Shown: one piece after another, positions 1-12,503 of the stretch
How the letters are laid out: each line of letters starts with the position of its first letter
How positions within the stretch are numbered: the stretch's first letter is position 1
Origin: a virus
Lineage: Duplodnaviria > Caudoviricetes
IMG/VR virus record: IMGVR_UViG_3300005841_000939
Reading direction: 5' to 3' (one strand)
DNA length: 64,000 bases
Translations under genes and position numbers: made by a program
Notes under the pieces: model-generated
What the model saw: only the letters and a program-made list of their open reading frames with translations
Told to the model about the DNA's origin: nothing
Databases searched by the model: none

Positions 1-163
1 AATAATACTCTGTCAGCCCGTTAATACCAGATTCTTTGACGTAATGGTCATATTCTTTTTTATTCTTAGACATATTCGCAAAGTACAACGACTTAGCCAA
101 CTTAATCCTTGAATTTTCAAAGTCATTGAACTGAATTTTATTATATTTTTTCTTTTTATTCAT
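1..163 (-). CDS. Hypothetical protein, 3' end outside window (MNKKKKYNKIQF...)
   Basis: Manual translation from ATG at 163, open to the window edge; lies downstream of the array terminator. Confidence 0.4.
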   Translation of the reverse strand, partial: MNKKKKYNKIQFNDFENSRIKLAKSLYFANMSKNKKEYDHYVKESGINGLTEYY

Positions 164-218
164 ATTTAAAGAATATTATACGCCTTTCATATTAGGCCGC
201 AAAATGTTTATATAGGTG

Positions 219-250
219 AAAAAACCCATATACATTTCTGCATATGGGTT
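219..250 (-). terminator. Intrinsic terminator closing the tRNA array
   Basis: Minus strand AACCCATATGCA-GAAA-TGTATATGGGTT followed by TTTT, 10 nt after the last tRNA CCA. Confidence 0.85.
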
Positions 251-260
251 ATCCACTTTA

Positions 261-336
261 TGGTGCTGACAGAGGGAATTGAACCCCCAACCTATTGTTT
301 ACAAAACAATTGCTCTGCCAATTGAGCTATGTCAGC
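261..336 (-). tRNA. tRNA-Thr(UGU)
   Basis: Cloverleaf; anticodon arm ATTGT-TTTGTAA-ACAAT; encoded CCA. Confidence 0.95.
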
Positions 337-372
337 ATAAAAACATTATAAACGGTAGAATCAAAAAACAAG

Positions 373-448
373 TGGTCAGGGTAACGAGAATTGAACTCGT
401 GTTTCATCCGTGACAGGGATGCGTAATAAGCCACTATACCATACCCCG
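373..448 (-). tRNA. tRNA-Asp(GUC)
   Basis: CATCC-CTGTCAC-GGATG; T arm; CCA. Confidence 0.92.
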
Positions 449-453
449 AAAAT

Positions 454-528
454 TGGCCGCTTCCGTGGGATTCGGACCCACATGACAAGGTTCGTAGCCT
501 TGTATCCTTCCAGTTAGATGAAGAAGCG
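454..528 (-). tRNA. tRNA-Arg(ACG)
   Basis: CAAGG-CTACGAA-CCTTG; CCA. Confidence 0.92.
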
Positions 529-543
529 AAACATAAAACAAAT

Positions 544-618
544 TGGCGTCCCATAAAGGATTTGAACCTTTTCTCTCAGTTTAGAAGACTGATTTGCTTC
601 CAATTACAACAACGGGAC
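544..618 (-). tRNA. tRNA-Arg(UCU)
   Basis: TCAGT-CTTCTAA-ACTGA; CCA. Confidence 0.92.
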
Positions 619-627
619 AAGAAAAAA

Positions 628-1047
628 CATATGGTGTGCTATGCTGGGCCAAAGTCTATTGAGGTATATTCTTGAGAAGTCGGGCATACAACCTTTTGCT
701 TATCAATTGCAACGCCCTCAAACCCACCGTTCCGTAAGATACTTGATGGGCAATTCTCATGTCGTCTGTTATATCAACTTACACAAGCTTTATTGGGTCG
801 GAAATCATGCATTGCTGCAATCAAAAACCCCTTGCTCCCTGTAACTGCTTGCGCAATTTATGGGTTCTTTCGATGTAAGCCAATATCGTCAACTCTATCC
901 TAGGGTTATAAGTCTGGACTGTTGCTATGCACTCCCTGATTGCTATTCAGTTCGCTGTGCTGCCAGAAACTCTTGAACCGTTTGCGCGACAGTTCTTCCC
1001 TTCGACACTCCTTAGATGATGCCTTGTTAAAGGCCACATCCCATATG
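628..1047 (-). ncRNA. Large structured RNA A (420 nt) framed by a 23S rRNA L11-binding-domain-like motif
   Basis: Terminal stem CATATGG/CCATATG; 5' GGATGTGGCCTTTAACAAGGCATCATCTAAGGAGTG and 3' ATAGCACA resemble 23S H43/H44; several GCAA-capped hairpins inside. Confidence 0.7.
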
Positions 1048-1052
1048 CAAAT

Positions 1053-1126
1053 TGGTTCCCCGTCTGAGAATTGAACTCAGGTCTCCAGCGTCACAAGCCG
1101 ATATACTGCCATTGTACGAACGAGGG
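1053..1126 (-). tRNA. tRNA-His(GUG), non-canonical acceptor end
   Basis: CGGC-TTGTGAC-GCTG; CCA; A73 and C1.A72 mismatch, genomic -1 base is T. Confidence 0.88.
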
Positions 1127-1207
1127 AATAACAAAACCGATTTTTTCCATAGCTCGGTAAACACTATGTTCCTTAGACGAGAACACGTTCATAGAAATTT
1201 CAAATAT

Positions 1208-1282
1208 TGGTTCCCCATCCGAGAATCGAACTCGGGTCTCCGGTGCCACAAACCAGCGTACTAACCACTGTACGAATGAGAG
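1208..1282 (-). tRNA. tRNA-His(GUG), second copy, same non-canonical acceptor end
   Basis: CTGGT-TTGTGGC-ACCGG; CCA; A73 and C1.A72. Confidence 0.88.
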
Positions 1283-1283
1283 A

Positions 1284-1595
1284 ATGAGAAAGACATTTTA
1301 TAATATTGCAATGCTTCGTTTAAAAACATTACGTGATGGACATACTTGTGTATTTTGTGGCCTAACATCTAAGCTAGGTAACAAGTCATGCCGAAATCTC
1401 ATAGAGATTCATCATATTATTGAACGTCAAGATGGCGGATCTAACGAAAGTTCAAATTTAATTCCATGCTGTTCCAATCACCATTCGCTTATCCATTCAG
1501 GAAGCATCAACGTTGATCGTTGGTACAAATCCACAAAAGGATGGCTATTGCGATGGACAGATGAAACTGGTGTTGAACACTATTCACCAGAATAA
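1284..1595 (+). CDS. HNH endonuclease, antisense within the tRNA array (true start may be ATG 1311)
   Basis: CxxC...IEIHHI...GGSNESSNLIPCCSNHHSLIH HNH signature. Confidence 0.85.
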   Translation: MRKTFYNIAMLRLKTLRDGHTCVFCGLTSKLGNKSCRNLIEIHHIIERQDGGSNESSNLIPCCSNHHSLIHSGSINVDRWYKSTKGWLLRWTDETGVEHYSPE

Positions 1596-1599
1596 AAAA

Positions 1600-1945
1600 T
1601 TGTTTGAATGGTGTGTTATTACACCAAAGAACCGGTTTTCTTTACTCTTAATCAAACACGAATTATAAAAAGACACATTGAAAAAGTAATGTATTGTCTC
1701 TTTATAAAAGGAGAATAACTCCAAAGTTTCGTTCTTAAACATGTAGCTGACTCCGGTCAAAGAGTAGGATTATGAATCCTTGCGCGGTTTGTTCAGAAGA
1801 GGTTGCTAGCTAATCCCTTCGTCGTCATACTTTATTTACCTTTTTTATCAGGACCATATGACAATCATCGGGCAAGCACCTTGCTATTCAGCGAATTCAC
1901 TCTTTAAAAGATGGCTACTTCTAAGCCGACTTCCCATTCAAACAA
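1600..1945 (-). ncRNA. Large structured RNA B (346 nt) framed by a 23S rRNA L11-binding-domain-like motif
   Basis: Perfect 12-bp terminal stem TTGTTTGAATGG/CCATTCAAACAA; 5' GGAAGTCGGCTTAGAAGTAGCCATCTTTTAAAGAGTG and 3' TGTAATAACACA match the 23S 1051-1108 consensus, split by a ~290-nt insert. Confidence 0.8.
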
Positions 1946-1954
1946 AAAGAATTT

Positions 1955-2105
1955 CACGACAAAAGTGCCAAAGTAGACTCCTTGCGGATTAGCTGTGTCT
2001 ATCATTTCCACCATACTCCCAATTGGTGGGAGCACCGGGATTTAAACCACGGATGTACCTAAGTACGGCTACGGTTATATAATGTAAACTTTAACTGCAT
2101 TCGTG
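1955..2105 (-). ncRNA. Y RNA-like scaffold copy 1 with permuted type II tRNA-like domain
   Basis: CACGAATGC...TACAT...T arm, acceptor closed by ACCAATT loop, D arm...TTTTGTCGTG. Confidence 0.7.
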
Positions 2106-2110
2106 AAAAG

Positions 2111-2185
2111 TGGTGCGTCGTCTTGGAATCGAACCAAGTCCCGAGGATTAAAAGTCCCCTGCTCCACCATTTGAGCTTACAACGC
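2111..2185 (-). tRNA. tRNA-Lys(UUU)
   Basis: GGGGA-CTTTTAA-TCCTC; CCA. Confidence 0.95.
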
Positions 2186-2189
2186 GTGT

Positions 2190-2501
2190 TTATTTCTTTG
2201 GTAAATTGCCAGTTATGAAAAATTTAAGACGTTGAAAAAAGCCCATATGAACTATTTCTTCATATGACATCAACATACTTTCCATACATGAATCTTTTAA
2301 CTTATTACTTTCTTCAATCTTTTTATTTTCTTCAATCAGTCTTTTATTTTCGGATTGAAGTGAAACATAATGCTTTTGTTGATATTCGATCAAACCAGCA
2401 TGAAATGCAGTTCCGCCAACCAAAATAAATTCACGAAGTGGAATTGATTGAGGCATTGAGTCTTGCATCTGTTGCGCAGCTTTTTCTAAATCTTTAGTCA
2501 T
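2190..2501 (-). CDS. Hypothetical protein with coiled coil
   Basis: 103-aa ORF, ATG, overlaps the upstream stop (ATGA). Confidence 0.7.
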   Translation of the reverse strand: MTKDLEKAAQQMQDSMPQSIPLREFILVGGTAFHAGLIEYQQKHYVSLQSENKRLIEENKKIEESNKLKDSCMESMLMSYEEIVHMGFFQRLKFFITGNLPKK

Positions 2502-2650
2502 TTTATTTCTTTGTGATTGGTTTTAACGGACTTTGATCCATACCCTGGACCAAACTTTTCTATCTGCTTCTTATACCACAATGCATGTGATCTAAGCCTT
2601 AAGAAATCGCCAGGTCCACTTCCTTTTGGTATCGGAATTTTTCTGAACAT
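2498..2650 (-). CDS. Small basic hypothetical protein (MFRKIPIPKG..., 50 aa)
   Basis: AAGGAG RBS before ATG 2650; the longer track ORF runs into tRNA-Lys. Confidence 0.6.
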   Translation of the reverse strand: MFRKIPIPKGSGPGDFLRLRSHALWYKKQIEKFGPGYGSKSVKTNHKEIK

Positions 2651-2669
2651 GGCATCTCCTTTCTTAATT

Positions 2670-2744
2670 TGGTGGGTCGTCACGGAATCGAACCGTGTTC
2701 TCAGGATTAAGAGTCCTATGCATCGCCATTTATGCTTACAACCC
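2670..2744 (-). tRNA. tRNA-Lys(CUU)
   Basis: TAGGA-CTCTTAA-TCCTG; CCA. Confidence 0.95.
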
Positions 2745-2748
2745 AAAT

Positions 2749-3036
2749 TTATATTAAAGATAGTGTTGATTCATCAAATAGGAATTCTTTTTTGACTTGT
2801 TCAATTGGAACTTTTATGACTTGTTCGTGAAATTGCCTAGTTTCTTTATAAGACGATTTTGAATGCTTATATACATGACGAATTAGCACCGTCTTTTCAG
2901 TGACCTTCGCAATTTTACCAAACATGAATGATCTATATTCCAATTCTACAAATAAAACCCAATCACCTGCAGCTAATTCATTGCCAAGAAAATCTTTGTT
3001 CATGGCGAAAGTATATGCAACCAATTTCGTTGTCAA
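2749..3036 (-). CDS. Hypothetical protein (SH3/KOW-like small phage protein)
   Basis: ORF with DFLGNEL..GDWV.F...GKIAKVTEKTV pattern; start uncertain. Confidence 0.6.
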   Translation of the reverse strand: MTTKLVAYTFAMNKDFLGNELAAGDWVLFVELEYRSFMFGKIAKVTEKTVLIRHVYKHSKSSYKETRQFHEQVIKVPIEQVKKEFLFDESTLSLI

Positions 3037-3086
3037 TTCTAAAAGGATACCTGGTTAAGCAGCAGGGTGAGGTTACGATTCTGTCG

Positions 3087-3245
3087 TCACAGACCGATTA
3101 AATATTCTTCACTCATCACAAACGCCAAACAGTCATCATCCATTCCATTATCAATTATGACTGGACCTGTTGCTTCTGCACCATACATTTTGATGGCATT
3201 TTCCATGGAATCTTCACACAGTTTTTTGAATTCTGGATATTCCAT
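3087..3245 (-). CDS. Small acidic hypothetical protein (52 aa)
   Basis: Manual translation MEYPEFKKLCEDS...; below the track length cutoff. Confidence 0.45.
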   Translation of the reverse strand: MEYPEFKKLCEDSMENAIKMYGAEATGPVIIDNGMDDDCLAFVMSEEYLIGL

Positions 3246-3250
3246 GATGA

Positions 3251-3403
3251 TCACTTTATAATTCTAAGAGGATAAAATTTTGTTTCATCCTTCTTTTTAT
3301 TCTTTGGATTCTTACTACGTTTTTGTTCAGATTCATGCAAAAGTTTTGCATAAATTTTCTGAAACTCTTCTAACGTGATTCCTATATCGTCATCTTCTTT
3401 CAT
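3251..3403 (-). CDS. Small hypothetical protein (50 aa)
   Basis: Manual translation MKEDDDIGITLEEF... Confidence 0.4.
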   Translation of the reverse strand: MKEDDDIGITLEEFQKIYAKLLHESEQKRSKNPKNKKKDETKFYPLRIIK

Positions 3404-3420
3404 GATGAGTCTTTCTAAAA

Positions 3421-3496
3421 TGGTGGAGACGGCAGGACTCGAACCTGTAACCCTCTACGTGCAAGGCAGATGCTCTACCAATTGAGCTACGTCCCC
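3421..3496 (-). tRNA. tRNA-Ala(UGC)
   Basis: TCTGC-CTTGCAC-GTAGA; G3.U70; CCA. Confidence 0.96.
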
Positions 3497-3595
3497 ATTT
3501 TGTTTATTGATATTTAGCTTTCGCTATTTTCTTCTTCCATGATGGCCAGGAATTAAACTTTTTCTTAGCCTCTTTTAAAATTTGTGCAGATGATT

Positions 3596-4039
3596 TCATA
3601 TTTTATTGGCGAATGTATAAAACATTCCAGTCTTTGTGTCAATGAATTTATATTCCTCAACTTTATATTCAAAAACTAATGAAAATATTCCGTCTGTATC
3701 ATTTAAATCATGATCTAACTTAGTTCCATGATAGAGACCTGCCAGATAAATTTTAGTAAATTCAAGTTTCAATATTACATCACCATTTTTTGCTATTTGT
3801 GATGTAACAATTTTTTCTGGTTGTTTAAACATCAATTCAAGTGTTTTTGGATTTTTATCATCAACTAACATTTTTATTTTTAATGTATCTTTATTAGTGA
3901 AGTCAACCGTTCTCACAAGTGTTGTTAGTTCGTTCTTTGGAACTAGTTCTACGCCATTAGCATCAAAGGCTTCTACTAAAAATAGATATGATCTTAATGG
4001 ATCATTAAAAAGAAATTCTGGTTTTGGAATATTATTCAT
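3596..4039 (-). CDS. Hypothetical protein, weakly tail-tube (gp19)-like
   Basis: Start moved to ATG 4039 because the track ORF overlaps tRNA-Gln; DPLRSYLFLVE and LDH...FSLVFEY resemble gp19-family ends. Confidence 0.55.
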   Translation of the reverse strand: MNNIPKPEFLFNDPLRSYLFLVEAFDANGVELVPKNELTTLVRTVDFTNKDTLKIKMLVDDKNPKTLELMFKQPEKIVTSQIAKNGDVILKLEFTKIYLAGLYHGTKLDHDLNDTDGIFSLVFEYKVEEYKFIDTKTGMFYTFANKI

Positions 4040-4080
4040 ACAAGTAATTATACAAAATATATTACAATATGCGAGAAAAA

Positions 4081-4156
4081 TGGTTGGGGAGGAAGGATTC
4101 GAACCTTCAACTTCTGGATTCAAAGTCCAGCGTTCTACCGATTGAACTACTCCCCA
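4081..4156 (-). tRNA. tRNA-Gln(UUG)
   Basis: CTGGA-CTTTGAA-TCCAG; CCA. Confidence 0.95.
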
Positions 4157-4165
4157 ATGAAAATT

Positions 4166-4247
4166 TGGTGTGCCTGAGAGGACTTGAACCTCCACCCTTT
4201 CGGACTAGTTTCTAAAACTAGCGCGGCTGCCATTACGCCACAAGCAC
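4166..4247 (-). tRNA. tRNA-Leu(UAG)
   Basis: CTAGT-TTTAGAA-ACTAG; variable arm; A73. Confidence 0.93.
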
Positions 4248-4262
4248 ATGATGAAATTGAAA

Positions 4263-4349
4263 TGGTGTGTCCAAAAGGAGTCGAACCTTCACCCCTGTTA
4301 CGGGATTAGCACCTCAAGCTAACGCGGCTGCCAATTACGCCATAGACAC
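4263..4349 (-). tRNA. tRNA-Leu(GAG)
   Basis: TTAGC-TTGAGGT-GCTAA; long variable arm. Confidence 0.92.
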
Positions 4350-4356
4350 ATAAAAA

Positions 4357-4417
4357 TCAAGACTAATATTTGAGAAGTTTTGTTGTTTCATAATGTAAAC
4401 TTCTGCGGCATTCTTGA
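4357..4417 (-). ncRNA. Y RNA-like scaffold copy 2 (minimal, no tRNA domain)
   Basis: TCAAGAATGC..AGAAGTT-TACAT...AACTTCT...TATTAGTCTTGA. Confidence 0.65.
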
Positions 4418-4427
4418 AAAAATAAAA

Positions 4428-4522
4428 TGGCGCCCCAGGATGGATTTGAACCACCAACCTCTTCTTGATCCCCCAAGGGATGGCCTTGATCAAGAATCAC
4501 TCTACATTTGAGCTACCGGGGC
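4428..4522 (-). tRNA. tRNA-like gene with a greatly extended anticodon arm (identity undetermined)
   Basis: Normal acceptor, D and T arms and GCCA end; anticodon arm TTCTTGATC-17 nt-GATCAAGAA. Confidence 0.7.
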
Positions 4523-4532
4523 ATATAAAAAA

Positions 4533-4607
4533 TGGCACCCAAGATAGGACTCGAACCTATAACATCCTGATTAACAGTCAGGCTCTCTACCATTGAGATA
4601 CTCGGGT
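4533..4607 (-). tRNA. tRNA-Asn(GUU)
   Basis: CCTGA-CTGTTAA-TCAGG; G73; CCA. Confidence 0.94.
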
Positions 4608-4617
4608 ACAAAAAAAA

Positions 4618-4708
4618 TGGCTGGTAGTGAGGGACTCGAACCCCCATGATGTTTTTCACATCGGCTCGTTAACAGCGGGCTGCCTTACCAAATTCGGCAC
4701 AACTACCA
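4618..4708 (-). tRNA. Type II (long variable arm) tRNA with Asn anticodon GUU
   Basis: GCCCG-CTGTTAA-CGAGC; variable arm GATGT-GAAAA-ACATC; G73; CCA. Confidence 0.8.
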
Positions 4709-4720
4709 ATGAAAATAAAA

Positions 4721-4806
4721 TGGAGTCTGTAGCAGGATTTGAACCTGCGTGTGGTTTCCCAAACGGTTTTGCAAACCGTCGCTTTCAGCCGCTCAGCCAT
4801 ACAGAC
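4721..4806 (-). tRNA. tRNA-Cys(GCA) with extended variable arm
   Basis: ACGGT-TTGCAAA-ACCGT; U73; CCA. Confidence 0.9.
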
Positions 4807-4812
4807 ATATAA

Positions 4813-4891
4813 TCGCAACAAAATTTAAAAAGTTTTGGTTTTTCCAGAGCAAGCTCGGGTATATTAGATGTAAACTTTTCAGCATTTGCGA
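4813..4891 (-). ncRNA. Y RNA-like scaffold copy 3 (no tRNA domain)
   Basis: TCGCAAATGC..AAAAGTT-TACAT...AACTTTT...TTTTGTTGCGA. Confidence 0.65.
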
Positions 4892-4903
4892 AATAAAAAG
4901 AAT

Positions 4904-5036
4904 AAAGCGACAAAAAGTATGAAGTGGTTTTTCGTGTGTTAGCCGTTACACCACCACCCGTTATGGTCGGGCAGCCAGGAATCGAACCTAGATCACGTTC
5001 TCCGAATGAATGTACACCTCAAAAGGCATTCGCTTT
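4904..5036 (-). ncRNA. Y RNA-like scaffold copy 4 with permuted tRNA-like domain
   Basis: AAAGCGAATGC...TACAT...CTAGG-TTCGATT-CCTGG, CTGCCCG-ACCATAA-CGGGTGG, D arm...TTTTGTCGCTTT. Confidence 0.72.
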
Positions 5037-5039
5037 AAA

Positions 5040-5116
5040 TGGTGGTCCCTCAGGGAATCGAACCCTAACCTCAGGTTTTTCAAACCTACGTGCATACCTA
5101 ATTACACCAAAGGACC
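5040..5116 (-). tRNA. tRNA-Phe(GAA)
   Basis: TAGGT-TTGAAAA-ACCTG; CCA. Confidence 0.92.
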
Positions 5117-5133
5117 ATAATATCTTAAAAAAT

Positions 5134-5223
5134 TGGCGGATAGAGAGGGATTTGAACCCCCGGAACGTTTTCACGCTCATCGGTTTAGTAAACCGGCGCA
5201 TTCGGCCACTCTGCCATCTATCC
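5134..5223 (-). tRNA. tRNA-Ser(ACU), rare A34 anticodon
   Basis: CCGGT-TTACTAA-ACCGA; long variable arm; G73; acceptor and T arm identical to Ser(UGA) at 8811. Confidence 0.9.
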
Positions 5224-5232
5224 GTATGAAAC

Positions 5233-5306
5233 TGGTCGGTAATGATGGAGTCGAACCATCGCATTGGCCTTATGAGAGCCACGTTCTGCCGTTAAACTAA
5301 ATACCG
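5233..5306 (-). tRNA. tRNA with CAU anticodon (Met or Ile2)
   Basis: TGGCT-CTCATAA-GGCCA; A73; CCA. Confidence 0.88.
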
Positions 5307-5310
5307 ATAC

Positions 5311-5386
5311 TGGCACGCTGGGCAGGACTTGAACCTGCAACACCTGGTTTTGGAAACCAGTGCTCTGCCGATTGAGCTACCAGCGT
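5311..5386 (-). tRNA. tRNA-Trp(CCA)
   Basis: CTGGT-TTCCAAA-ACCAG; G73; CCA. Confidence 0.95.
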
Positions 5387-5393
5387 ATGAAAC

Positions 5394-5603
5394 TTAAAAA
5401 TCTTTCTCTTCAAGCAAATTTGTGCAACGACCTTCTGCAACTGCTCTATTTATGTCATCAAATTCTTTTTTGATTTCATCAAGCAATGCTTTCTTTTCTT
5501 CTTCTGATATATCAGAAGAATTTAACCTTTCTTCGGTTTTCTCATCCAAATGAATGCAACTTGAAATCATTCCTTCTGATAACCATTCCTGTGGAACTAT
5601 CAT
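5394..5603 (-). CDS. Small acidic hypothetical protein
   Basis: 69-aa ORF overlapping the HD gene stop. Confidence 0.55.
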   Translation of the reverse strand: MIVPQEWLSEGMISSCIHLDEKTEERLNSSDISEEEKKALLDEIKKEFDDINRAVAEGRCTNLLEEKDF

Positions 5604-6205
5604 TTGTCTTCTTTCTCTAAAAGGTTGTTAAAAATGATTTTGCAAATGGCCTTGCCACGACGGTCAATATGCTTCCACTTGATCTTAAAAGAATCCGAAT
5701 CAATACCACCAAACATATTGGCATTTGAATGGATTTCAGCAAGACCTGCAATTAGAAGTGTTATTGCTTCTTTGCGTTTGCAAAATTCTTCAATTTGTTC
5801 TGCTTTGAGACGATGAATATCCATATCCAACCTAATGAGATTGGCAATTTGTTCATCACCTCCATGATCTAACCAAATTTGTGCAGAAATTTCCGCATGA
5901 TTTGGAAAATGAATGCGACCTTCGCTATCAGTTTCCTGACAGAATGGTTTGCCGCAATCATGAAAAAGGGCATACTCAAGAATTGTTTCGGTGTCTAACA
6001 GATTCCCTAAAATCTGTGACTTGTATAATTGAAACCATTCAGGGAGTCGCCAATTTGGCAACACCTATGTTTCACCTTTTATAAACTGAATCAACTCTTG
6101 AAGATGATTCTTGACTGATTCTCCGTGTTGGAGAATCGTTTGATGTTGATTTTGATTACAACCCTTCATCTTTTCGATGAGGATCTACTGAAAGTCCTGC
6201 TTCAT
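5600..6205 (-). CDS. HD-domain phosphohydrolase with two in-frame TAG codons (6185-6187 and 6065-6067)
   Basis: AAGGA RBS before ATG 6205; same frame as track ORF 5600..6064; LQHG (first His), FHDCGKP and later DMDIH/EIHSN motifs. Confidence 0.7.
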
Positions 6206-6213
6206 GATGTTCC

Positions 6214-6384
6214 TTAAATGGTTGATGCGAGAGCGAGCGATGTTGCTATGCGTGAAAGTTCGTCATTTCTTTTACTATCAATTTGACCATTGTTCCATCC
6301 AATTTCTCGAATGTGAAATGCCAACGCCAAAGAATTTTCAAATTCTTCAACTTCAATTAATTTTTCTCCAACTCTAATCATCAT
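6214..6384 (-). CDS. Small hypothetical protein (56 aa)
   Basis: Manual translation MMIRVGEKLIEVEEF...; ATGA overlap with the HNH stop. Confidence 0.5.
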   Translation of the reverse strand: MMIRVGEKLIEVEEFENSLALAFHIREIGWNNGQIDSKRNDELSRIATSLALASTI

Positions 6385-6689
6385 TTCAATCTTTCTGATT
6401 TTTGAATTGCGAGTTGTTTTGACGATTTAATTTTATTATACAAGTCATCAGGATGGAAATTTGGTTCCCATTCTTTCCCTTGTGTAATATGAAATTTTTC
6501 TGCCATCATGTGATGGGTTGGGCAAAGAGAAATACCATTCTCTTTGACATAGCCACCGTTTGGCATTTCATTTCGATCAGTTATGTGATGCGCATCAAGA
6601 TTTTCTTTAATGTCACAAAACAAACATTTGCCACCGTCTCGCTTGAAGACTGCGTTGCGAAATGCTGAACGAATTTCCTTCTTGTTCAT
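6381..6689 (-). CDS. HNH endonuclease
   Basis: CLFC...LDAHHI...NGISLCPTHH. Confidence 0.85.
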   Translation of the reverse strand: MNKKEIRSAFRNAVFKRDGGKCLFCDIKENLDAHHITDRNEMPNGGYVKENGISLCPTHHMMAEKFHITQGKEWEPNFHPDDLYNKIKSSKQLAIQKSERLK

Positions 6690-6769
6690 GGCTTACGACA
6701 TAAGTTTAAGCCTTGTTTTTATATGTCAACTGAAAAAACACCTGGGTATTCGCTGTCTTTCAAACTCTG

Positions 6770-6887
6770 GTTAGTTGATGCATTCAACATCACCAATGCG
6801 CCAAGTGTGTATTGAAAATGCCGCAGTCAGGATATGCGCCAGCTTTGAACTTCTAGTTAGTTGATGCATCAACATCACTAATGCGCC
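6770..6887 (-). repeat. Direct repeat of a ~33-nt hairpin with ATGCA loop
   Basis: gttagttgatgcat(t)caacatcac(c/t)aatgcgcc at 6770-6802 and 6856-6887; related hairpin at 7090-7110. Confidence 0.8.
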
Positions 6888-6901
6888 TGAGATTGGCTTT
6901 T

Positions 6902-6977
6902 TGGTGGACAATGAGGGATTTGAACCCCCGACCTCTTGAATGTAAATCAAGCACTCTAGCCGCTGAGTTAATCGTCC
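6902..6977 (-). tRNA. tRNA-Val(UAC)
   Basis: CTTGA-TTTACAT-TCAAG; CCA. Confidence 0.94.
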
Positions 6978-7145
6978 AAAAATTGAAATTATAAAGGCAG
7001 CTTTCAATCGCGACCATATCGTATAATTTCTTCCTGTTTTTTATCCATGATGGATCATCATGCTATGCTTTTGACTTGTTGCAAACAAGCAATGTTATGC
7101 ATTAACATTGTTAGCATCTAACCGTCGCTAGATGCCCAAAAAAGA

Positions 7146-7212
7146 AATACGACTAAAAGCGAATAAGAGGGGTTATCTTAAATGGATGTACTCCTATTCT
7201 AGCATTCGTATT
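7146..7212 (-). ncRNA. Y RNA-like scaffold copy 5 (no tRNA domain)
   Basis: AATACGAATGC..GAATAGGAG-TACAT...CTCTTATTC-GCTTTTAGTCGTATT. Confidence 0.68.
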
Positions 7213-7214
7213 AT

Positions 7215-7300
7215 TGGTGCCCATAGCCGGACTTGAACCAGCACCCCTGTTACGGGAGAGGATTTTGAATCCACCGCGGCTGCCATTACGCCATACGGGC
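7215..7300 (-). tRNA. tRNA-Leu(CAA)
   Basis: GTGGA-TTCAAAA-TCCTC; long variable arm. Confidence 0.92.
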
Positions 7301-7343
7301 AAAAATTGATTGTCTAAAATGGTTGTGAATACTTTCGTTTATA

Positions 7344-7448
7344 GAAATGGTCTGCCGTAGCACGTTGGCCATTTCTTTGACGGGAGCATTCATATCTAAA
7401 AGGTGCCAATAATATCCCCAAAGCTGCCGTAGCACGTTCTATGAGGAA
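7344..7448 (-). repeat. Two hairpins with an identical 15-nt apical sequence AACGTGCTACGGCAG
   Basis: ctgccgtagcacgtt at 7352-7366 and 7424-7438, each between different complementary flanks. Confidence 0.8.
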
Positions 7449-7459
7449 GATGGCGAAAT

Positions 7460-7532
7460 TGCTGCGACACTTGGATTTAAACCAAGACTTTCCGATTTCC
7501 CCTCGGTGCTCTAATTATTAAGCTATATCACA
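7460..7532 (-). pseudogene. Degenerate tRNA-like element
   Basis: Acceptor, D and T arms fold; anticodon loop GGGGAAA lacks U33; 3' end GCAA. Confidence 0.6.
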
Positions 7533-7538
7533 ATAAGA

Positions 7539-7615
7539 TGGTCAGTATGAGAGGATTTGAACCTCTGACTTCTGGCTTCCAAAACCAGCACTCTTCCAGG
7601 CTGAGCTACACACTG
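7539..7615 (-). tRNA. tRNA-Pro(UGG)
   Basis: CTGGT-TTTGGAA-GCCAG; CCA. Confidence 0.94.
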
Positions 7616-7623
7616 ATAAAAAG

Positions 7624-7725
7624 TTTCACAACAAAATAAAAAAGAAGTGCTCCCCAATAGAGCATCTGAGGTTTCCCTAAGATTGGAATCGAACCAATAA
7701 TGTATTCTTTTTAGCATTTGTGAAA
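7624..7725 (-). ncRNA. Y RNA-like scaffold copy 6 with minimal permuted tRNA-like domain
   Basis: TTTCACAAATGC..TACAT-T-ATTGG-TTCGATT-CCAAT-CTTAGG-GAAA-CCTCAG-AT-GCTC-TATTGGG-GAGC...TTTTGTTGTGAAA. Confidence 0.72.
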
Positions 7726-7731
7726 ATGAAA

Positions 7732-7818
7732 TGGTGGGTGAAATAGGACTCGAACCTATGAAGTCATTAAAGACGGGACGTTTACAGCGTCCAGCAATTG
7801 CCGCTATGCGATTCACCC
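7732..7818 (-). tRNA. tRNA-Tyr(GUA)
   Basis: GGACG-CTGTAAA-CGTCC; long variable arm; A73. Confidence 0.94.
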
Positions 7819-7823
7819 AAAAA

Positions 7824-7964
7824 TATCACGACTAAATTGCGAAAGAAAATGGCTTGCGCCGAATCGGCTGTTCTACCGCTGAACTACATCACACCGAAAT
7901 GTGATGGTGGGATTTGAACCCACGACAGGCTGATGGAATGTAATCCTTCATTGCATTCGTGATA
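7824..7964 (-). ncRNA. Y RNA-like scaffold copy 7 with permuted tRNA-like domain
   Basis: TCACGAATGC..TACAT...GTGGG-TTCAAAT-CCCAC, CATCACA-TTTCGG-TGTGATG, GTTC-AGCGGTA-GAAC...TTTAGTCGTGA. Confidence 0.75.
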
Positions 7965-7975
7965 AAAACTGAAAA

Positions 7976-8052
7976 TGGTCGGACATGCTGGATTTGAACC
8001 AGCGGTCTCTTGCTCCCAAAGCAAGCGCGATACCAGGCTACGCTAATGTCCG
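7976..8052 (-). tRNA. tRNA-Pro(UGG), second copy
   Basis: CTTGC-TTTGGGA-GCAAG; CCA. Confidence 0.92.
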
Positions 8053-8054
8053 AA

Positions 8055-8131
8055 AAGCCGATCCGTCAAGATTTTAACTTGAATCTCCCAGCGTATAGTG
8101 CCAGGCATTCTTTACGTTGAACTACGAATCG
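8055..8131 (-). pseudogene. Degenerate tRNA-like element (no CCA, no U33)
   Basis: Cloverleaf folds; loop ACTATAC; T loop TTAAAAT; 3' end GCTT. Confidence 0.6.
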
Positions 8132-8146
8132 AAAAGTAAACTAAAA

Positions 8147-8223
8147 AGGCCCGACTGTCAAGATTTGAACTTGAATTTTCCAGCCATGACGGCCGGACGT
8201 TCTTTGCATTGAACTACAATCAG
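8147..8223 (-). pseudogene. Degenerate tRNA-like element, paralog of 8055-8131
   Basis: Cloverleaf folds; loop CGTCATG; 3' end GCCT. Confidence 0.6.
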
Positions 8224-8228
8224 AAAAA

Positions 8229-8361
8229 GAAACGACTAAAAGCGAAAAGATGTATTACGCGCTCTACCGGTGAGCTAAACGAGCAAATTGGCGCCCGCTC
8301 CAGGAATCGAACCTGGTCCTCGTCCTTAACATGGATGTAATCCTTTCAAAGCATTCGTTTC
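8229..8361 (-). ncRNA. Y RNA-like scaffold copy 8 with permuted tRNA-like domain
   Basis: GAAACGAATGC..TACAT...CCAGG-TTCGATT-CCTGG, AGCGGGC-GCCAATTT-GCTCGTT, GCTC-ACCGGTA-GAGC...TTTTAGTCGTTTC. Confidence 0.75.
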
Positions 8362-8370
8362 AAAGAAAAG

Positions 8371-8501
8371 GTCTGACAAATATTAGAGAAATTGTTTTTT
8401 AATGCTACCGTTACACCATACACACCTTTCGATGTGCAATAGGATTCGAACCTATACCCTTTGATTATCGGTCAATGTAAATCTCTCAAAGGCATTCAGA
8501 C
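8371..8501 (-). ncRNA. Y RNA-like scaffold copy 9 with permuted tRNA-like domain
   Basis: GTCTGAATGC..TACAT...ATAGG-TTCGAAT-CCTAT, TGCACAT-CGAAAG-GTGTGTA, D arm...TTTGTCAGAC. Confidence 0.72.
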
Positions 8502-8504
8502 TTG

Positions 8505-8580
8505 TGGTTGGCATACCAGGAATCGAACCTGGATCTTAACTTTATCAGAGTTATGTGATGAACCATTCTACTATACGCCA
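8505..8580 (-). tRNA. tRNA-Ile(GAU)
   Basis: TAACT-CTGATAA-AGTTA; A73; CCA. Confidence 0.93.
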
Positions 8581-8810
8581 ATATGGTGATGTCGATTTTT
8601 AGGCCGACACCACTAATCCAACGTTTAAACTCGGTTTTACCCAAATCTCCTAACGTTGGCAAAAGGAATGCTACTAGCCTTTCGACTAATAGCATTTTTA
8701 ATGCTATTTTTTGATTCTACAGTTATAAAGTTTTCAAGTTTGAATCTGGAACCATTATTCTGTCGTTCTTGGGTTTAGCAAGAACTATCCTTTTTGGTTT
8801 GTCGATTCAT

Positions 8811-8900
8811 TGGCGGATAGAGAGGGATTTGAACCCCCGGAGCCCTTTCAGGCCCTCTAGTTTTCAAGACTAGCGCAATAAGCCGCTCTGCCATCTATCC
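8811..8900 (-). tRNA. tRNA-Ser(UGA), first tRNA of the array
   Basis: CTAGT-CTTGAAA-ACTAG; long variable arm; G73. Confidence 0.95.
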
Positions 8901-8930
8901 AGCACATTCTAAATTTTTCAAAGATACTAC

Positions 8931-8966
8931 AAAACGAAAAACCCTGAGACTTTTTGGTCCCAGGGT
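8931..8966 (-). terminator. Attenuator-type intrinsic terminator just upstream of the first tRNA
   Basis: ACCCTGGGAC-CAAAAA-GTCTCAGGGT followed by TTTTCGTTTT. Confidence 0.85.
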
Positions 8967-8991
8967 CTTGAGTCAGTCAGTTATGACCTTC

Positions 8992-9108
8992 TCAGTTGGG
9001 ACCACTTCCGTTTCTATCCAACGGATTTGAGCGGCAAGGATATGTATTAAATGCTACTTGAGCATTCCAGACCTTGCTTTTCATAATGAGTTGATGGGAG
9101 CGTTTCAT
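8992..9108 (-). CDS. Putative 38-aa attenuator leader peptide MKRSHQLIMKSKVWNAQVAFNTYPCRSNPLDRNGSGPN
   Basis: Manual translation ATG 9108 to TGA 8992; 19 of 20 amino acids; its last codons carry TGGTCCCA, complementary to the terminator 5' arm; no clear SD. Confidence 0.65.
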   Translation of the reverse strand: MKRSHQLIMKSKVWNAQVAFNTYPCRSNPLDRNGSGPN

Positions 9109-9121
9109 GGCGTTATGTTGA

Positions 9122-9129
9122 TATTTATA
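9122..9129 (-). promoter_or_regulatory. T4-type late promoter TATAAATA driving leader and tRNA array (a sigma70-like TTGCAT...TATAAA overlaps it)
   Basis: Exact T4 late consensus 13 nt upstream of the leader ATG. Confidence 0.6.
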
Positions 9130-9164
9130 TATAACTTATTCTAGCATGCAAGAGAAATTTTTTC

Positions 9165-9608
9165 TCAGAAATCTAGAAGCTTGTAAACCTTGTCTTTTGC
9201 GTGTGTTAAGTCGTTGATGATTACATCAAACTTGGGATGCTTGTTTCTACGCTCACGTTCTAAGAAGTCAACGTACCACTCAAGTTGTCCTATGATTTTA
9301 TTTGCGTAGGATCTAACATTGTGTGGATTCACATTTTGACCTTGAACTTGAATATACTTATTCATTTTCTCTACGAGGTCCAAAATAGCCTTGTAATCTT
9401 TTATTCTAAAATATGAAATAGGATCACCATTTTCATCACGTTCAAATGGTGCTATTTTTTTATCAAACTGATGAATACGGTCATCAAAACCACTTAACAG
9501 TTGCCATACACGAAAAAATCTTTCTGATAGAGGTAAGCTTCTTTGTGCTTCTACATGAGCGTTTTCTAAAAACTTACTCCATTGTCTTTTCATGAATGCA
9601 GGGTGCAT
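9165..9608 (-). CDS. Hypothetical helical protein, paralog of the adjacent gene
   Basis: 147-aa ORF; aligns by eye with 9617..10063. Confidence 0.8.
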   Translation of the reverse strand: MHPAFMKRQWSKFLENAHVEAQRSLPLSERFFRVWQLLSGFDDRIHQFDKKIAPFERDENGDPISYFRIKDYKAILDLVEKMNKYIQVQGQNVNPHNVRSYANKIIGQLEWYVDFLERERRNKHPKFDVIINDLTHAKDKVYKLLDF

Positions 9609-9616
9609 ATTAGTCC

Positions 9617-10063
9617 TTAGAAATTTAATTCTTTGAATGCCGCTGGCAAGGCTTTTATCAAATTATTGGCTGCTTCATCAACTTTCTTATCATGACCACG
9701 TAAAGAAATTAATTTCTTAGCATAATTTGACATTGAATTGATAATGCCGTCACGGTAAACTTTTACTTTTTCAATATTTGGATTTTCATTTTTATACAAA
9801 TATTTACGAAGGGCATCCCAAGTACTTACAATATCTTTTAACTTATTTGTATCATAAAAAGATTTTTGTTCGCCGGTTTGAGAATCCATATTTTTATCCC
9901 AACCACCTGCACGTTCAGCTTTATACAAATCATCAATAAATGCTGATACTTCGCGATAACCCTTCATTATTTTATCTTCTACAGAATTACCAAGGGTAAT
10001 CATCTGTGGACGTTCAAGAAATAATTTCCATTTATTTTTAAATTGTTGTTTTTCTGTAGCCAT
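9617..10063 (-). CDS. Hypothetical helical protein
   Basis: 148-aa ORF; N-terminal W..FLE motif shared with its neighbour. Confidence 0.8.
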   Translation of the reverse strand: MATEKQQFKNKWKLFLERPQMITLGNSVEDKIMKGYREVSAFIDDLYKAERAGGWDKNMDSQTGEQKSFYDTNKLKDIVSTWDALRKYLYKNENPNIEKVKVYRDGIINSMSNYAKKLISLRGHDKKVDEAANNLIKALPAAFKELNF

Positions 10064-10209
10064 GATTATTTCTTTGGATTGTGTTTAAAATATTCAACTT
10101 GTTGAATTCTTTTTTCTGCTTGCTTGTGAGAAAGATTACTTTTAGAGAGATTTTTCTTTCCATCCTTGCTTACAACTTTGTATCCACTTTTTGTTTTTCT
10201 GATCATAAT

Positions 10210-11496
10210 TTACCCCAAAATAACGTTGAATTTATCACCTTCACCAGTGATCTTTTTTCCCTTATTCATCTTTTGATATGCATTCCAACCTTCGTTGATT
10301 TTCTTCAATTTAGATTTTTTGCGATCATCAGTTGTAACTTGTTCATAAAAATCAATCTTTGGTCCACAATCCATGCGACCAACGCCAGCATGTACAGGGG
10401 ATTGTTCTTTGATTTGTTCATCATCTTCAACAGGTTCTTCATCGTCTTGTTCAATATCGGCTGGTTTATCAGCAGCAACTTTAACATTATTATGTTTAGG
10501 TTTGAAATCGTGATGAATCACTTTCTTTGTTTCTTGATCAAAACCAAGAGCAGGATCATCTGGATCTAACAACCAAGTATCGCCACTTGCAATTTTCTTG
10601 AGCAATTCATTTTGTGCTTTAGTATCAAGACCCTTGATAATTTCTTGACGCTTCTTAAATCCACTTGCAAATGCACCATAGATATTAGCAATACGAACAT
10701 CATTGAAAATCTTTGCTGACAAATCAACCAATTGATTCCAATAATTGTAATCTTTGTTATTCTTCATCCAACTTGCAAAACTTGAAACACGCTCTGGAAT
10801 TTGTGATTTATTTGGATCAGCATCAACAACGTTTTTACGTTCACGACCATTGTCTTGTATACGTCCAAATAAATTTGGGGCTTCTGTGAGAGTACCTTTA
10901 TTTGCAACACCAAGTTTACCTGCAACTTCTGGTAATAGGTATGGAAGTAAAGCACCACGACCTTCTTTTGAATTAATTACAAAGTTTCTGAAACCATCAG
11001 TGTTATCAATATTTGGATAACCCAAATAATCAATACCTAGCCCAATGCCACGCTTTCTTACTGCTTCTGCAACCAATTTATTAAATTCGTCAACATGATT
11101 ATTTGCACTTGCTACAGCTTCAACTGACATTTCTGCCATTTCATCACGGTAAGAATTAAGTAATTCTAAAATTATATTAGTATCGCCTGATACAGATACA
11201 TTTGACAAATCTTTTGTAGCTTCTCTTGCAAAATCATGATAGACCTTATACATGGTCTTATCTTTCTTTGCTTTCTCAGCTTTCAAAATCTTTTGATATT
11301 CTGGATTCTTTGAAAGATCAGCAATATTCTTACCAAATGTTCTCAAGAAATCATCTTGAGAATCAAATTTACCGCCAGCAATTGGTGCGTCAGGATGAAC
11401 ATCTGATCCACCAAAAGCTTCATCCTCTTTAAGCAATTTACGCTTTTGGAAGACTTTCCAGTCACCTTTACCAGTATTGATGTATTCTTGATCCAT
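10210..11496 (-). CDS. Late protein, possibly internal head protein
   Basis: 428 aa; late promoter and GGAG RBS; LLKED and KINEG resemble prohead-protease sites. Confidence 0.75.
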   Translation of the reverse strand: MDQEYINTGKGDWKVFQKRKLLKEDEAFGGSDVHPDAPIAGGKFDSQDDFLRTFGKNIADLSKNPEYQKILKAEKAKKDKTMYKVYHDFAREATKDLSNVSVSGDTNIILELLNSYRDEMAEMSVEAVASANNHVDEFNKLVAEAVRKRGIGLGIDYLGYPNIDNTDGFRNFVINSKEGRGALLPYLLPEVAGKLGVANKGTLTEAPNLFGRIQDNGRERKNVVDADPNKSQIPERVSSFASWMKNNKDYNYWNQLVDLSAKIFNDVRIANIYGAFASGFKKRQEIIKGLDTKAQNELLKKIASGDTWLLDPDDPALGFDQETKKVIHHDFKPKHNNVKVAADKPADIEQDDEEPVEDDEQIKEQSPVHAGVGRMDCGPKIDFYEQVTTDDRKKSKLKKINEGWNAYQKMNKGKKITGEGDKFNVILG

Positions 11497-11520
11497 TAGG
11501 TTCTCCTAGTATCTTTTACG

Positions 11521-11528
11521 TATTTATA
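11521..11528 (-). promoter_or_regulatory. Late promoter TATAAATA
   Basis: Exact consensus between the terminator and the RBS of 10210..11496. Confidence 0.75.
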
Positions 11529-11541
11529 TGTTTTAAAAGCC

Positions 11542-11577
11542 AAAAAATAAACCTATGGAAATTTCTTCCATAGGTTT
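11542..11577 (-). terminator. Intrinsic terminator
   Basis: AAACCTATGGAA-GAAA-TTTCCATAGGTTT followed by ATTTTTT. Confidence 0.85.
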
Positions 11578-11603
11578 ACTAGATTCTAATTACTTTTTTA
11601 CTA

Positions 11604-12503
11604 TTATTCTTCGTCGGACTTATGTCCAGTTACTTTATGCTTTTCTTTTGAATCTGAACTAATCTTTGATGAAGACAACTTACCTTTGAGTTTTTCTATC
11701 TTTTTCTTCAATTCTTCTTTTTCTTCTGGATCAGTTTCATCGGCAAGCCACTTCTTAAGGCCTTCCAATTCTTTCTTCAAAGCTTCAAGATTTTGTTCGT
11801 TGAACTTTTGAACGCGGCCAGCTTGGAATGACTTCCATGACTTGCGACCTTCCATCATTGGGTCACGTTGCTTTTCACGATCTGCGGCATCTTGTTCTGC
11901 CTTATCGTCTGAATTGCAAACTTCTTCTTCCTTCAATTCAGTATCATCAACTGGTGCTGCATCGTCAGATGGAGCAACATCACCTACTGGTGCATCCAAT
12001 GCTGGATCAGCAACTGGTGCTGCATCAGGAACCATTGCACCTGAAGCGCCTGGGATTGCTGAATCAACTGGTTGAAGAATATTTGCAACATCTTGAATTG
12101 TCATTGTTGCTGGGAAAGTGACAACCATGAATTGGCCACTTTGATCATCATTAACTGATGCATTAAAGATACCATTTTCATTGACTGATTCTGCAATATT
12201 AACATCTGATGGGAGACCCTTCAAATATTTTGTAACGAAATCAGTTGTTGCCAACTTTGCTTGTGGATCAGCGGCAGCACCTTCTGCTGATGCATCTGGT
12301 GTAGTTGCAGGAACTTCTGGTGAAGTAACATCAACTGGTGCTGGTGCATCAGTTGCGGATGGATCTACTACTGGATCTTCCTCTTCTTCTTTTACTTTAA
12401 CGAGTCCCCAACTCTCTTTAAGAATTTGCTTATATGTTGAACGAAGGTCTTTACTGAGCTTGTTGCGCTTTTCGATAAGTTCGTCTCTTTTATTCATATC
12501 CAT
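11604..12503 (-). CDS. Acidic Pro/Ala/Asp-rich late protein, prohead core/scaffold-like
   Basis: 299 aa; low-complexity DAP repeats, coiled-coil ends, LKE/MME motifs; late promoter upstream. Confidence 0.7.
   Translation of the reverse strand: MDMNKRDELIEKRNKLSKDLRSTYKQILKESWGLVKVKEEEEDPVVDPSATDAPAPVDVTSPEVPATTPDASAEGAAADPQAKLATTDFVTKYLKGLPSDVNIAESVNENGIFNASVNDDQSGQFMVVTFPATMTIQDVANILQPVDSAIPGASGAMVPDAAPVADPALDAPVGDVAPSDDAAPVDDTELKEEEVCNSDDKAEQDAADREKQRDPMMEGRKSWKSFQAGRVQKFNEQNLEALKKELEGLKKWLADETDPEEKEELKKKIEKLKGKLSSSKISSDSKEKHKVTGHKSDEE

Follow-up and report, generated by a model that had tools for sequence, protein, structure and literature searches.

Organization of the leader region

In a soil phage of the class Caudoviricetes (IMG/VR record IMGVR_UViG_3300005841_000939; 262,529 bases, 36% G+C), a large array of tRNA genes is preceded by a short leader that carries a promoter-like box, a small open reading frame (ORF) and an intrinsic terminator. 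This leader is the subject of the present analysis. The window, that is, the whole stretch of 64,000 nucleotides that was analysed, represents the reverse strand of the record. All of the leader features are encoded on the window's minus strand, which corresponds to the plus strand of the record. Read 5′ to 3′ on the minus strand, the order is an orphan gene of 147 amino acids (end at 9165), the TATAAATA box, the ORF, a hairpin, the terminator and the gene for tRNA-Ser(UGA). We found that the ORF holds codons for nearly every tRNA species of the array and that its last codons are complementary to the terminator. In our judgement, it is probable, though well short of certain, that the leader acts as a ribosome-mediated attenuator of the trp type, which is tuned to the tRNAs of the array and sets transcription into the main array. 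The features are listed below in the direction of transcription.

9146..9151, minus strand: −35-like hexamer TTGCAT, read from the sequence, 16 nt upstream of the TATAAATA box
9122..9129, minus strand: TATAAATA promoter-like box, with the same consensus as the T4 late promoter; presumed transcription start at about 9116-9114
8992..9108, minus strand: leader ORF of 38 codons, ATG at 9108, TGA at 8994-8992
9007..9025, minus strand: hairpin UCCGUU/AACGGA, arms 9025-9020 and 9012-9007, within codons 28-34; present in every predicted fold
8997..9004, minus strand: 5′ strand of the antiterminator, UGGUCCCA in RNA (TGGTCCCA in DNA), in codons 35-38; exact complement of 8962-8955
8969..8994, minus strand: inner hairpin UGAG..GGUCA-UAAC-UGACU..CUCA of the predicted fold, enclosed by the antiterminator and with the stop codon inside
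8955..8962, minus strand: 3′ strand of the antiterminator, UGGGACCA in RNA (TGGGACCA in DNA); upper half of the terminator 5′ arm plus two loop bases
8930..8969, minus strand: intrinsic terminator, stem 8969-8938 with 13 pairs, 6-nt loop and a U tract to about 8930; −19.7 kcal/mol
8811..8900, minus strand: tRNA-Ser(UGA), first gene of the array, found by ARAGORN and Rfam, 37 nt past the terminator stem
261..8900, minus strand: tRNA array with 27 ARAGORN tRNAs, 23 distinct sense anticodons and 18 amino acids

The array is 8.7 kb long and includes, besides the tRNAs, Y RNA-like genes and a few ORFs. An Rfam search added three weaker tRNA-like genes and the Y RNA-like genes to the ARAGORN set. 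At its 3′ end, the array has its own terminator just past tRNA-Thr (genome position 102223). The leader ORF begins 13 nt past the TATAAATA box, and the gap that separates the last gene from the array has no other such ORF.

A previous sequence-only reading of this stretch had described the promoter, the 38-codon ORF with 19 of the 20 amino acids (Glu being absent) and several synonymous codons for Ser, Arg, Lys and Leu, and all of these are present on the minus strand. The hairpin TCCGTT/AACGGA was also recovered, at 9025-9020 with 9012-9007. In addition, the 8-nt complementarity between 8997-9004 and 8955-8962 proved exact, and the internal stems that had been suggested to extend it also appear when the RNA is folded, as UGAG/CUCA and GGUCA/UGACU. 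The terminator had been placed 35 nt after the stop codon; its stem actually starts 23 nt after it.

Codon content of the leader and the tRNA array

Codons and anticodons were matched under strict wobble rules. Of the 23 distinct sense anticodons in the array, 22 have a cognate codon in the leader, and the sole miss is Leu-UAG. The match reaches the isoacceptor level, with both Lys, both Arg, both Ser and two of the three Leu anticodons covered:

Lys: codons AAA and AAG; anticodons Lys-UUU and Lys-CUU
Arg: codons CGC and AGA; anticodons Arg-ACG and Arg-UCU
Leu: codons CTC and TTG; anticodons Leu-GAG and Leu-CAA
Ser: codons TCA and AGC/AGT; anticodons Ser-UGA and Ser-ACU

As a control, 38-codon windows of phage genes (n = 1,877) were scored in the same way; the mean was 14.2 ± 2.1 anticodons and the highest value 20. 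When two million leaders were simulated from the phage codon usage, the probability of covering 22 or more anticodons was 5.7e-5. Furthermore, the leader ranks first in both absolute and length-adjusted coverage among the 1,786 ATG ORFs of 20-60 codons in the six frames of the genome, and this genome-wide ranking removes the bias from choosing this ORF for its diversity. The ORF with the top coverage of the genome sits exactly where the attenuator model requires it. In addition, the match extends to the far end of the array, since it includes Thr, Asp, Arg and His, whose genes are more than 7 kb away. This suggests that the leader is tuned to the whole tRNA set.

The sequence-only reading had emphasized that the leader samples nearly all amino acids. 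The leader does hold 19 amino acid kinds, Glu alone being absent; 19 kinds in 38 residues is mildly unusual (P 0.02-0.05), and for this reason we rejected the 19 of 20 count as the key statistic. The sharper description is that the leader samples the array's own set at the isoacceptor level. Similarly, Glu is indeed absent from both the leader and the array, as had been pointed out, but the coincidence is weaker than it seemed because the phage has a tRNA-Glu gene in a separate cluster. Gly had been named as a counter-example, and it is true that the leader includes two Gly codons and the array no tRNA-Gly. Examined post hoc, all 22 sampled tRNA species are reached by codon 32, whereas Gly is encoded at codons 34 and 36, which fall within the hairpin and the antiterminator strand. 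In this zone, which is past the stalls that free the antiterminator in the model, the RNA structure would fix the sequence, and a stall there would not free the antiterminator. tRNA-Gly, too, is encoded elsewhere.

The tRNA-Glu and tRNA-Gly genes lie in a separate cluster of three genes (Met, Glu and Gly) about 20 kb downstream of the array (G000 genome positions 122206-122613). This cluster supplies exactly the two amino acids that are absent from the main array. A perfect TTGACA-16-TATAAATA promoter precedes it, it has a terminator of its own, and its 64-nt leader includes neither a terminator nor a matching ORF. No further cassette of leader ORF and terminator of this kind was found elsewhere in the genome, where all other terminators come after long genes.

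Terminator and antiterminator

The terminator is typical of the approximately 30 canonical intrinsic terminators in the genome. It has an upstream competitor. When the nascent RNA was folded as far as the terminator loop, the minimum-energy structure was the 8-bp helix 9004-8997/8962-8955 around the inner hairpin, and this antiterminator module has a predicted energy of −22.2 kcal/mol versus −19.7 kcal/mol for the terminator hairpin alone. A direct-path estimate gives a refolding barrier of about 14.5 kcal/mol, and because of this barrier the antiterminator should persist on the time scale of transcription.

We compared the competitor with dinucleotide shuffles of the 120 nt upstream. A perfect complement of 8 nt was obtained with P = 0.009, and the antiterminator energy gain of −11.2 kcal/mol with P = 0.014. 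On both measures, the competitor ranks first among 33 terminator-like sites, but the margin is not wide, as the runner-up has −10.2 kcal/mol and 7 nt. The hairpin at 9007-9025 is possibly a pause hairpin.

Ribosome position and the proposed mechanism

In the folding calculations, the ribosome was mimicked by a 30-nt stretch that was kept unpaired, which is a model only. The antiterminator was still predicted when the A site was placed at codon 14, 25 or 30. Moving the A site to codon 33 or to the stop codon covered 9004-8997, and the terminator formed instead. In addition, folding of the untranslated leader found no strong pairing that sequesters 9004-8997, and thus the default without ribosomes is read-through.

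According to the mechanism we propose, RNA polymerase would start at the TATAAATA box or arrive from the upstream genes and transcribe the 38-codon leader. The antiterminator would form first, occupying the upper half of the terminator 5′ arm. A fast ribosome that has reached the last codons or the UGA would cover 9004-8997, so that the terminator at 8969-8938 could fold and transcription would stop 37 nt before the first tRNA. If the ribosome were delayed within about the first 30-32 codons, or not loaded at all, the antiterminator would remain and the polymerase would enter the array. Slow decoding by any of the 22 sampled species would then lead to more synthesis of the array, which amounts to demand-driven feedback. 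The phage thus probably transcribes the array more when the leader codons are decoded slowly.

The sequence-only reading had interpreted the leader as a trp-type attenuator, and this interpretation is partly supported, since the anatomy and the folding geometry with a masked ribosome agree with it. Computation supplied the anatomy and geometry of the leader, its alternative folds and the match of codons to anticodons; translation of the leader, conditional read-through and the physiological trigger are inferred. The switch would gate the whole array; internal promoters may exist, and the ORFs of the array could have promoters of their own. As for the trigger, host anti-phage tRNA nucleases are conceivable.

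A broader idea is that the leader serves as a "test message", so that the loss or slowing of any one tRNA species would switch on the whole replacement set, an arrangement that is possibly general in large phages. We offer this idea tentatively and consider it rather unlikely as it stands. If it is true, the triggers would be, for example, the cutting of host tRNA, by anticodon nucleases or by other defences directed at tRNA, or the decay of host tRNA during infection, and the phage would have both an inducible counter-defence and a self-tuning tRNA supply. It may be added that the stop codon of the leader is UGA and that a tRNA-like gene of the array (8223-8148) has the anticodon UCA.

Promoter and start of the leader ORF

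The hexamer TTGCAT matches TTGACA at three of six positions, and therefore it was treated as optional. The genome holds 37 copies of TATAAATA, and 27 of the 37 do not overlap a called gene. The gene calls used for this count were crude and left about 10% of the genome intergenic. We found 26 copies wholly inside intergenic segments versus 6.2 ± 2.4 expected from per-segment Markov shuffles, an approximately 4-fold enrichment. Most copies are followed, after 6-60 nt, by a start codon of the same orientation, and they have an A-rich upstream context and no −35 element. Because the motif is enriched in intergenic segments and placed before genes, the box at 9129-9122 is a credible promoter. Furthermore, some copies carry a perfect TTGACA −35 element, including the copy before the Met-Glu-Gly cluster, and so the box may also be usable as a −10 element of the sigma-70 type.

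Transcription could also enter from the upstream genes, since there is no terminator between them and the leader; such longer transcripts would place the leader AUG in a normal 5′ context. Meanwhile, a separate promoter between the terminator and tRNA-Ser is unlikely, because these 37 nt contain TAGAAT and no usable −35 element.

In six cases (G000 18351, 22036, 50359, 77692 and 126638 on the plus strand and 137439 on the minus strand), exactly 6 nt separate the TATAAATA copy from the ATG. Judged by this spacing, these genes suggest a set of leaderless or near-leaderless late mRNAs. The remaining TATAAATA-driven genes have 15-60 nt to the start codon and an AGGAG-like site.

The 43 nt around the leader AUG are almost free of structure (−0.4 kcal/mol), less folded than 94% of gene starts; for comparison, the mean is −3.7 kcal/mol for genes and −5.1 kcal/mol for random ATGs. 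The leader as a whole, on the other hand, is strongly structured (z = −4.0).

Database searches and relatives

The 38-residue peptide had no match in Pfam, and among 1.8 billion representative proteins we found no relative of it, the single hit being a chance match to a repeat protein. A cmscan search of Rfam (E up to 1, positions 1-12000) reported tRNAs and Y RNA-like genes only, with nothing in 8925-9165. No paralogue of the leader stretch was found in the genome. Searches by blastn and tblastn against phage records returned tRNA-Ser as the only match, and a 25-nt pattern from tRNA-Ser found nothing in viral contigs and one unrelated contig in metagenomes. In a freshwater metagenome, there is a piece about 91% identical at window positions 8546-8696 and an identical piece at 8715-8865, on contigs too short to reach the leader. 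The former piece indicates that diverged strains exist. The stretch was not found in any RNA run.

Four contigs share one protein at about 47% identity, and only one of them has a tRNA array (G003/L005). In this contig (IMGVR_UViG_3300027917_000020, L005 13393-13653), a sigma-70-like promoter is followed by a structured RNA of about 200 nt (z = −3.65) and then by the array. This RNA has no ORF, no terminator and no match in Rfam.

A different case is Caulobacter phage RB23 (MZ574433.1; L007 5680-5995), in which the annotated 39-codon gp135 is located directly before a block of 12 tRNAs. After the start, 33 of its 38 residues are drawn from the eight amino acids of the block (binomial P about 1e-7). 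A direct repeat with alternative pairings follows gp135.

Alternative explanations

Several results weigh against an attenuator. Once the 3′ arm is present, the overall equilibrium lies on the side of the terminator fold by about 6 kcal/mol, and therefore antitermination rests on kinetics. There is no Shine-Dalgarno sequence before the leader ATG, as the sequence-only reading had already remarked, and the 5′ leader would be very short, since a transcription start 6-7 nt past the TATAAATA box would leave about 6-8 nt before the AUG. Other genes behind a TATAAATA box are either leaderless (6 nt) or Shine-Dalgarno-bearing, and so initiation on the leader ORF is uncertain. The leader has one to three scattered codons per tRNA and not the runs of classical attenuators; because its codons are single and scattered, it would respond poorly to a mild shortage. 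Between the first (Ser) and second (Ile) tRNAs, there is another terminator-like hairpin (8694-8665, minus strand; 11 pairs, weak U tract), and no ORF precedes it. As regards conservation, the neighbouring proteins of 147 and 428 amino acids have no homologues in 5.8 billion sequences; the other contigs that carry the neighbouring proteins are identical over the leader, and the array of G003/L005 stands behind a structured 230-nt leader that lacks both ORF and terminator. Finally, the stop codon of the ORF is 23 nt before the terminator, the usual distance for ordinary genes of this genome, and therefore the unit could be a plain small gene.

In that case, the leader would be an ordinary small late gene for a basic peptide of 38 residues, with its own TATAAATA promoter and terminator, adjoining the array by chance, and the tRNAs would be made by leakage or from other promoters. 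A terminator followed by a TATAAATA unit is the usual grammar of gene cassettes here, and the start region is unstructured, as in real genes. However, the peptide has neither homologues nor a family, and no fitting promoter is seen in the gap from the terminator to the first tRNA. A plain gene would also leave unexplained why 22 of 23 anticodons are covered (P about 6e-5; top rank among 1,786 ORFs) and why the strongest upstream competitor of 33 terminators falls exactly on the last codons. We consider a plain small gene unlikely.

Equally improbable, in our opinion, is that the stretch is non-coding, either as the 3′ end of the upstream operon or as a structured small RNA of about 180 nt with its own terminator, in which the frame and its codons arose by chance. 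The same lack of a Shine-Dalgarno sequence and the very short presumed 5′ leader agree with it, as do the strong structure of the leader (z = −4.0), the richness of the array itself in non-coding RNAs and the structured, ORF-free RNA of about 200 nt that the distant relative has before its array. It is difficult to reconcile with 38 open codons in DNA of 36% G+C that start at an unstructured AUG and whose content is the genome-wide extreme for the match to the array; moreover, an RNA of this kind has neither a family in Rfam nor a paralogue in the genome. The last possibility is a conditional terminator that is not controlled by the ribosome, in which one of the two folds would be stabilised by a protein of the phage or host or by an RNA, for example a tRNA. 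The alternative folds are present whether or not the ORF is translated, and a promoter and then a terminator right before the regulated genes are typical of riboswitch-like leaders. The codon match has no explanation here either, Rfam gave no T-box or riboswitch match (E up to 1), and there is no specifier-loop or T-box bulge architecture. We give this possibility somewhat less credit still. The ribosome-mediated attenuator is the reading that we prefer.

Other features of the array and the genome

The hairpin at 8694-8665 has a competing hairpin at about 8716-8690, with a 7-nt upstream complement and a gain of −8.4 kcal/mol, which places it in the top four of the 33 sites. Within the array, two paralogous tRNA-like genes at window positions 8223-8148 and 8131-8058 (minus strand) have the anticodons UCA and UAU. 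Both are without U33 and without a purine at position 37, and going by these bases they may be non-decoding. The gene with UCA (8223-8148) would decode UGA, the stop codon of the leader. Two other tRNA-like genes on the minus strand are odd: the one at 7532-7462 has the anticodon loop GGGGAAA, read as GGA, and the one at 4522-4431 is His-like, its anticodon arm carrying a 15-nt insert.

The two proteins encoded at window positions 9165-9608 and 10210-11496 occur as well on a 379,560-base contig, so that the genome may extend beyond the 262-kb record.

Comparison with known systems

Leader-peptide attenuators are well known from amino acid operons, such as trpL, hisL, leuL and pheL, and the thrL and ilvGMEDA leaders are multivalent. 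The theory of leader-peptide attenuation has been treated before (PMC1183508). The phage leader resembles these attenuators in its short, promoter-proximal ORF with an intrinsic terminator before the regulated genes, in an antiterminator that shares one strand with the terminator while its other strand is covered by a ribosome at the end of the ORF, and in regulatory codons that are tied to the product of the controlled genes. Like the multivalent thrL and ilvGMEDA leaders, it samples several amino acids. However, the controlled genes are those of tRNAs and not of biosynthetic enzymes, and the setting is a phage. Instead of runs of a single codon, there are one to three scattered codons for each of 22 species, and the leader is without a Shine-Dalgarno sequence. 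In addition, we found no strong 1:2 pairing, so that an untranslated leader should read through and not super-attenuate.

Ribosome-mediated attenuators that respond to antibiotics have been described for bmrB-bmrCD of Bacillus subtilis (PMC4191407) and for the mef/mel leader (PMC4335068). In these systems, too, a short leader ORF precedes a terminator, and stalling that results from a general slowing of translation leads to read-through. By this analogy, they are the closest functional counterpart, as sensors of the health of translation. Unlike the phage leader, they answer ribosomes stalled by a drug, control genes for efflux or ribosome protection, and show no codon match to the genes they control.

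The T-box (RF00230) is similar in that its leader RNA, with a terminator and an antiterminator, answers the state of tRNA and controls genes related to translation. However, it binds one uncharged tRNA directly through the specifier codon and the T-box bulge, without translation. We rejected the identification of the phage leader as a T-box or riboswitch, as there was no match to RF00230 or to a cis-regulatory family and no specifier or T-box architecture.

The TATAAATA box is identical to the octamer of the T4 late promoter and, like it, is enriched before genes, mostly without a −35 element. It differs in that some copies carry a perfect TTGACA −35, and by its sequence it is a candidate T4-type late promoter.

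Phage RB23 offers a similar arrangement, in which a promoter, an ORF of about 40 codons that mirrors the tRNAs behind it and alternative pairings are followed by the tRNA block. There is no sequence relationship between the two leaders, and that of RB23 is built from the eight amino acids of its block. In the present phage, one leader covers an array of 18 amino acids, so that it looks like "all amino acids".

To our knowledge, the regulation of phage tRNA genes is largely unexplored, and our full-text literature search found no paper that describes leader-peptide attenuation of such genes. It has been proposed that phage tRNAs counter host defences and nucleases that target tRNA (PMC10264068). 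With a translation-sensing switch placed before its tRNA array, the phage would gauge decoding capacity directly and produce tRNAs as they are needed. The element is about 200 nt long and self-contained, and the codon-match statistic can be applied to every phage tRNA array. Attenuation, known from amino acid operons and from genes that ribosome-targeting antibiotics induce, would in this way be extended to the tRNA pool.

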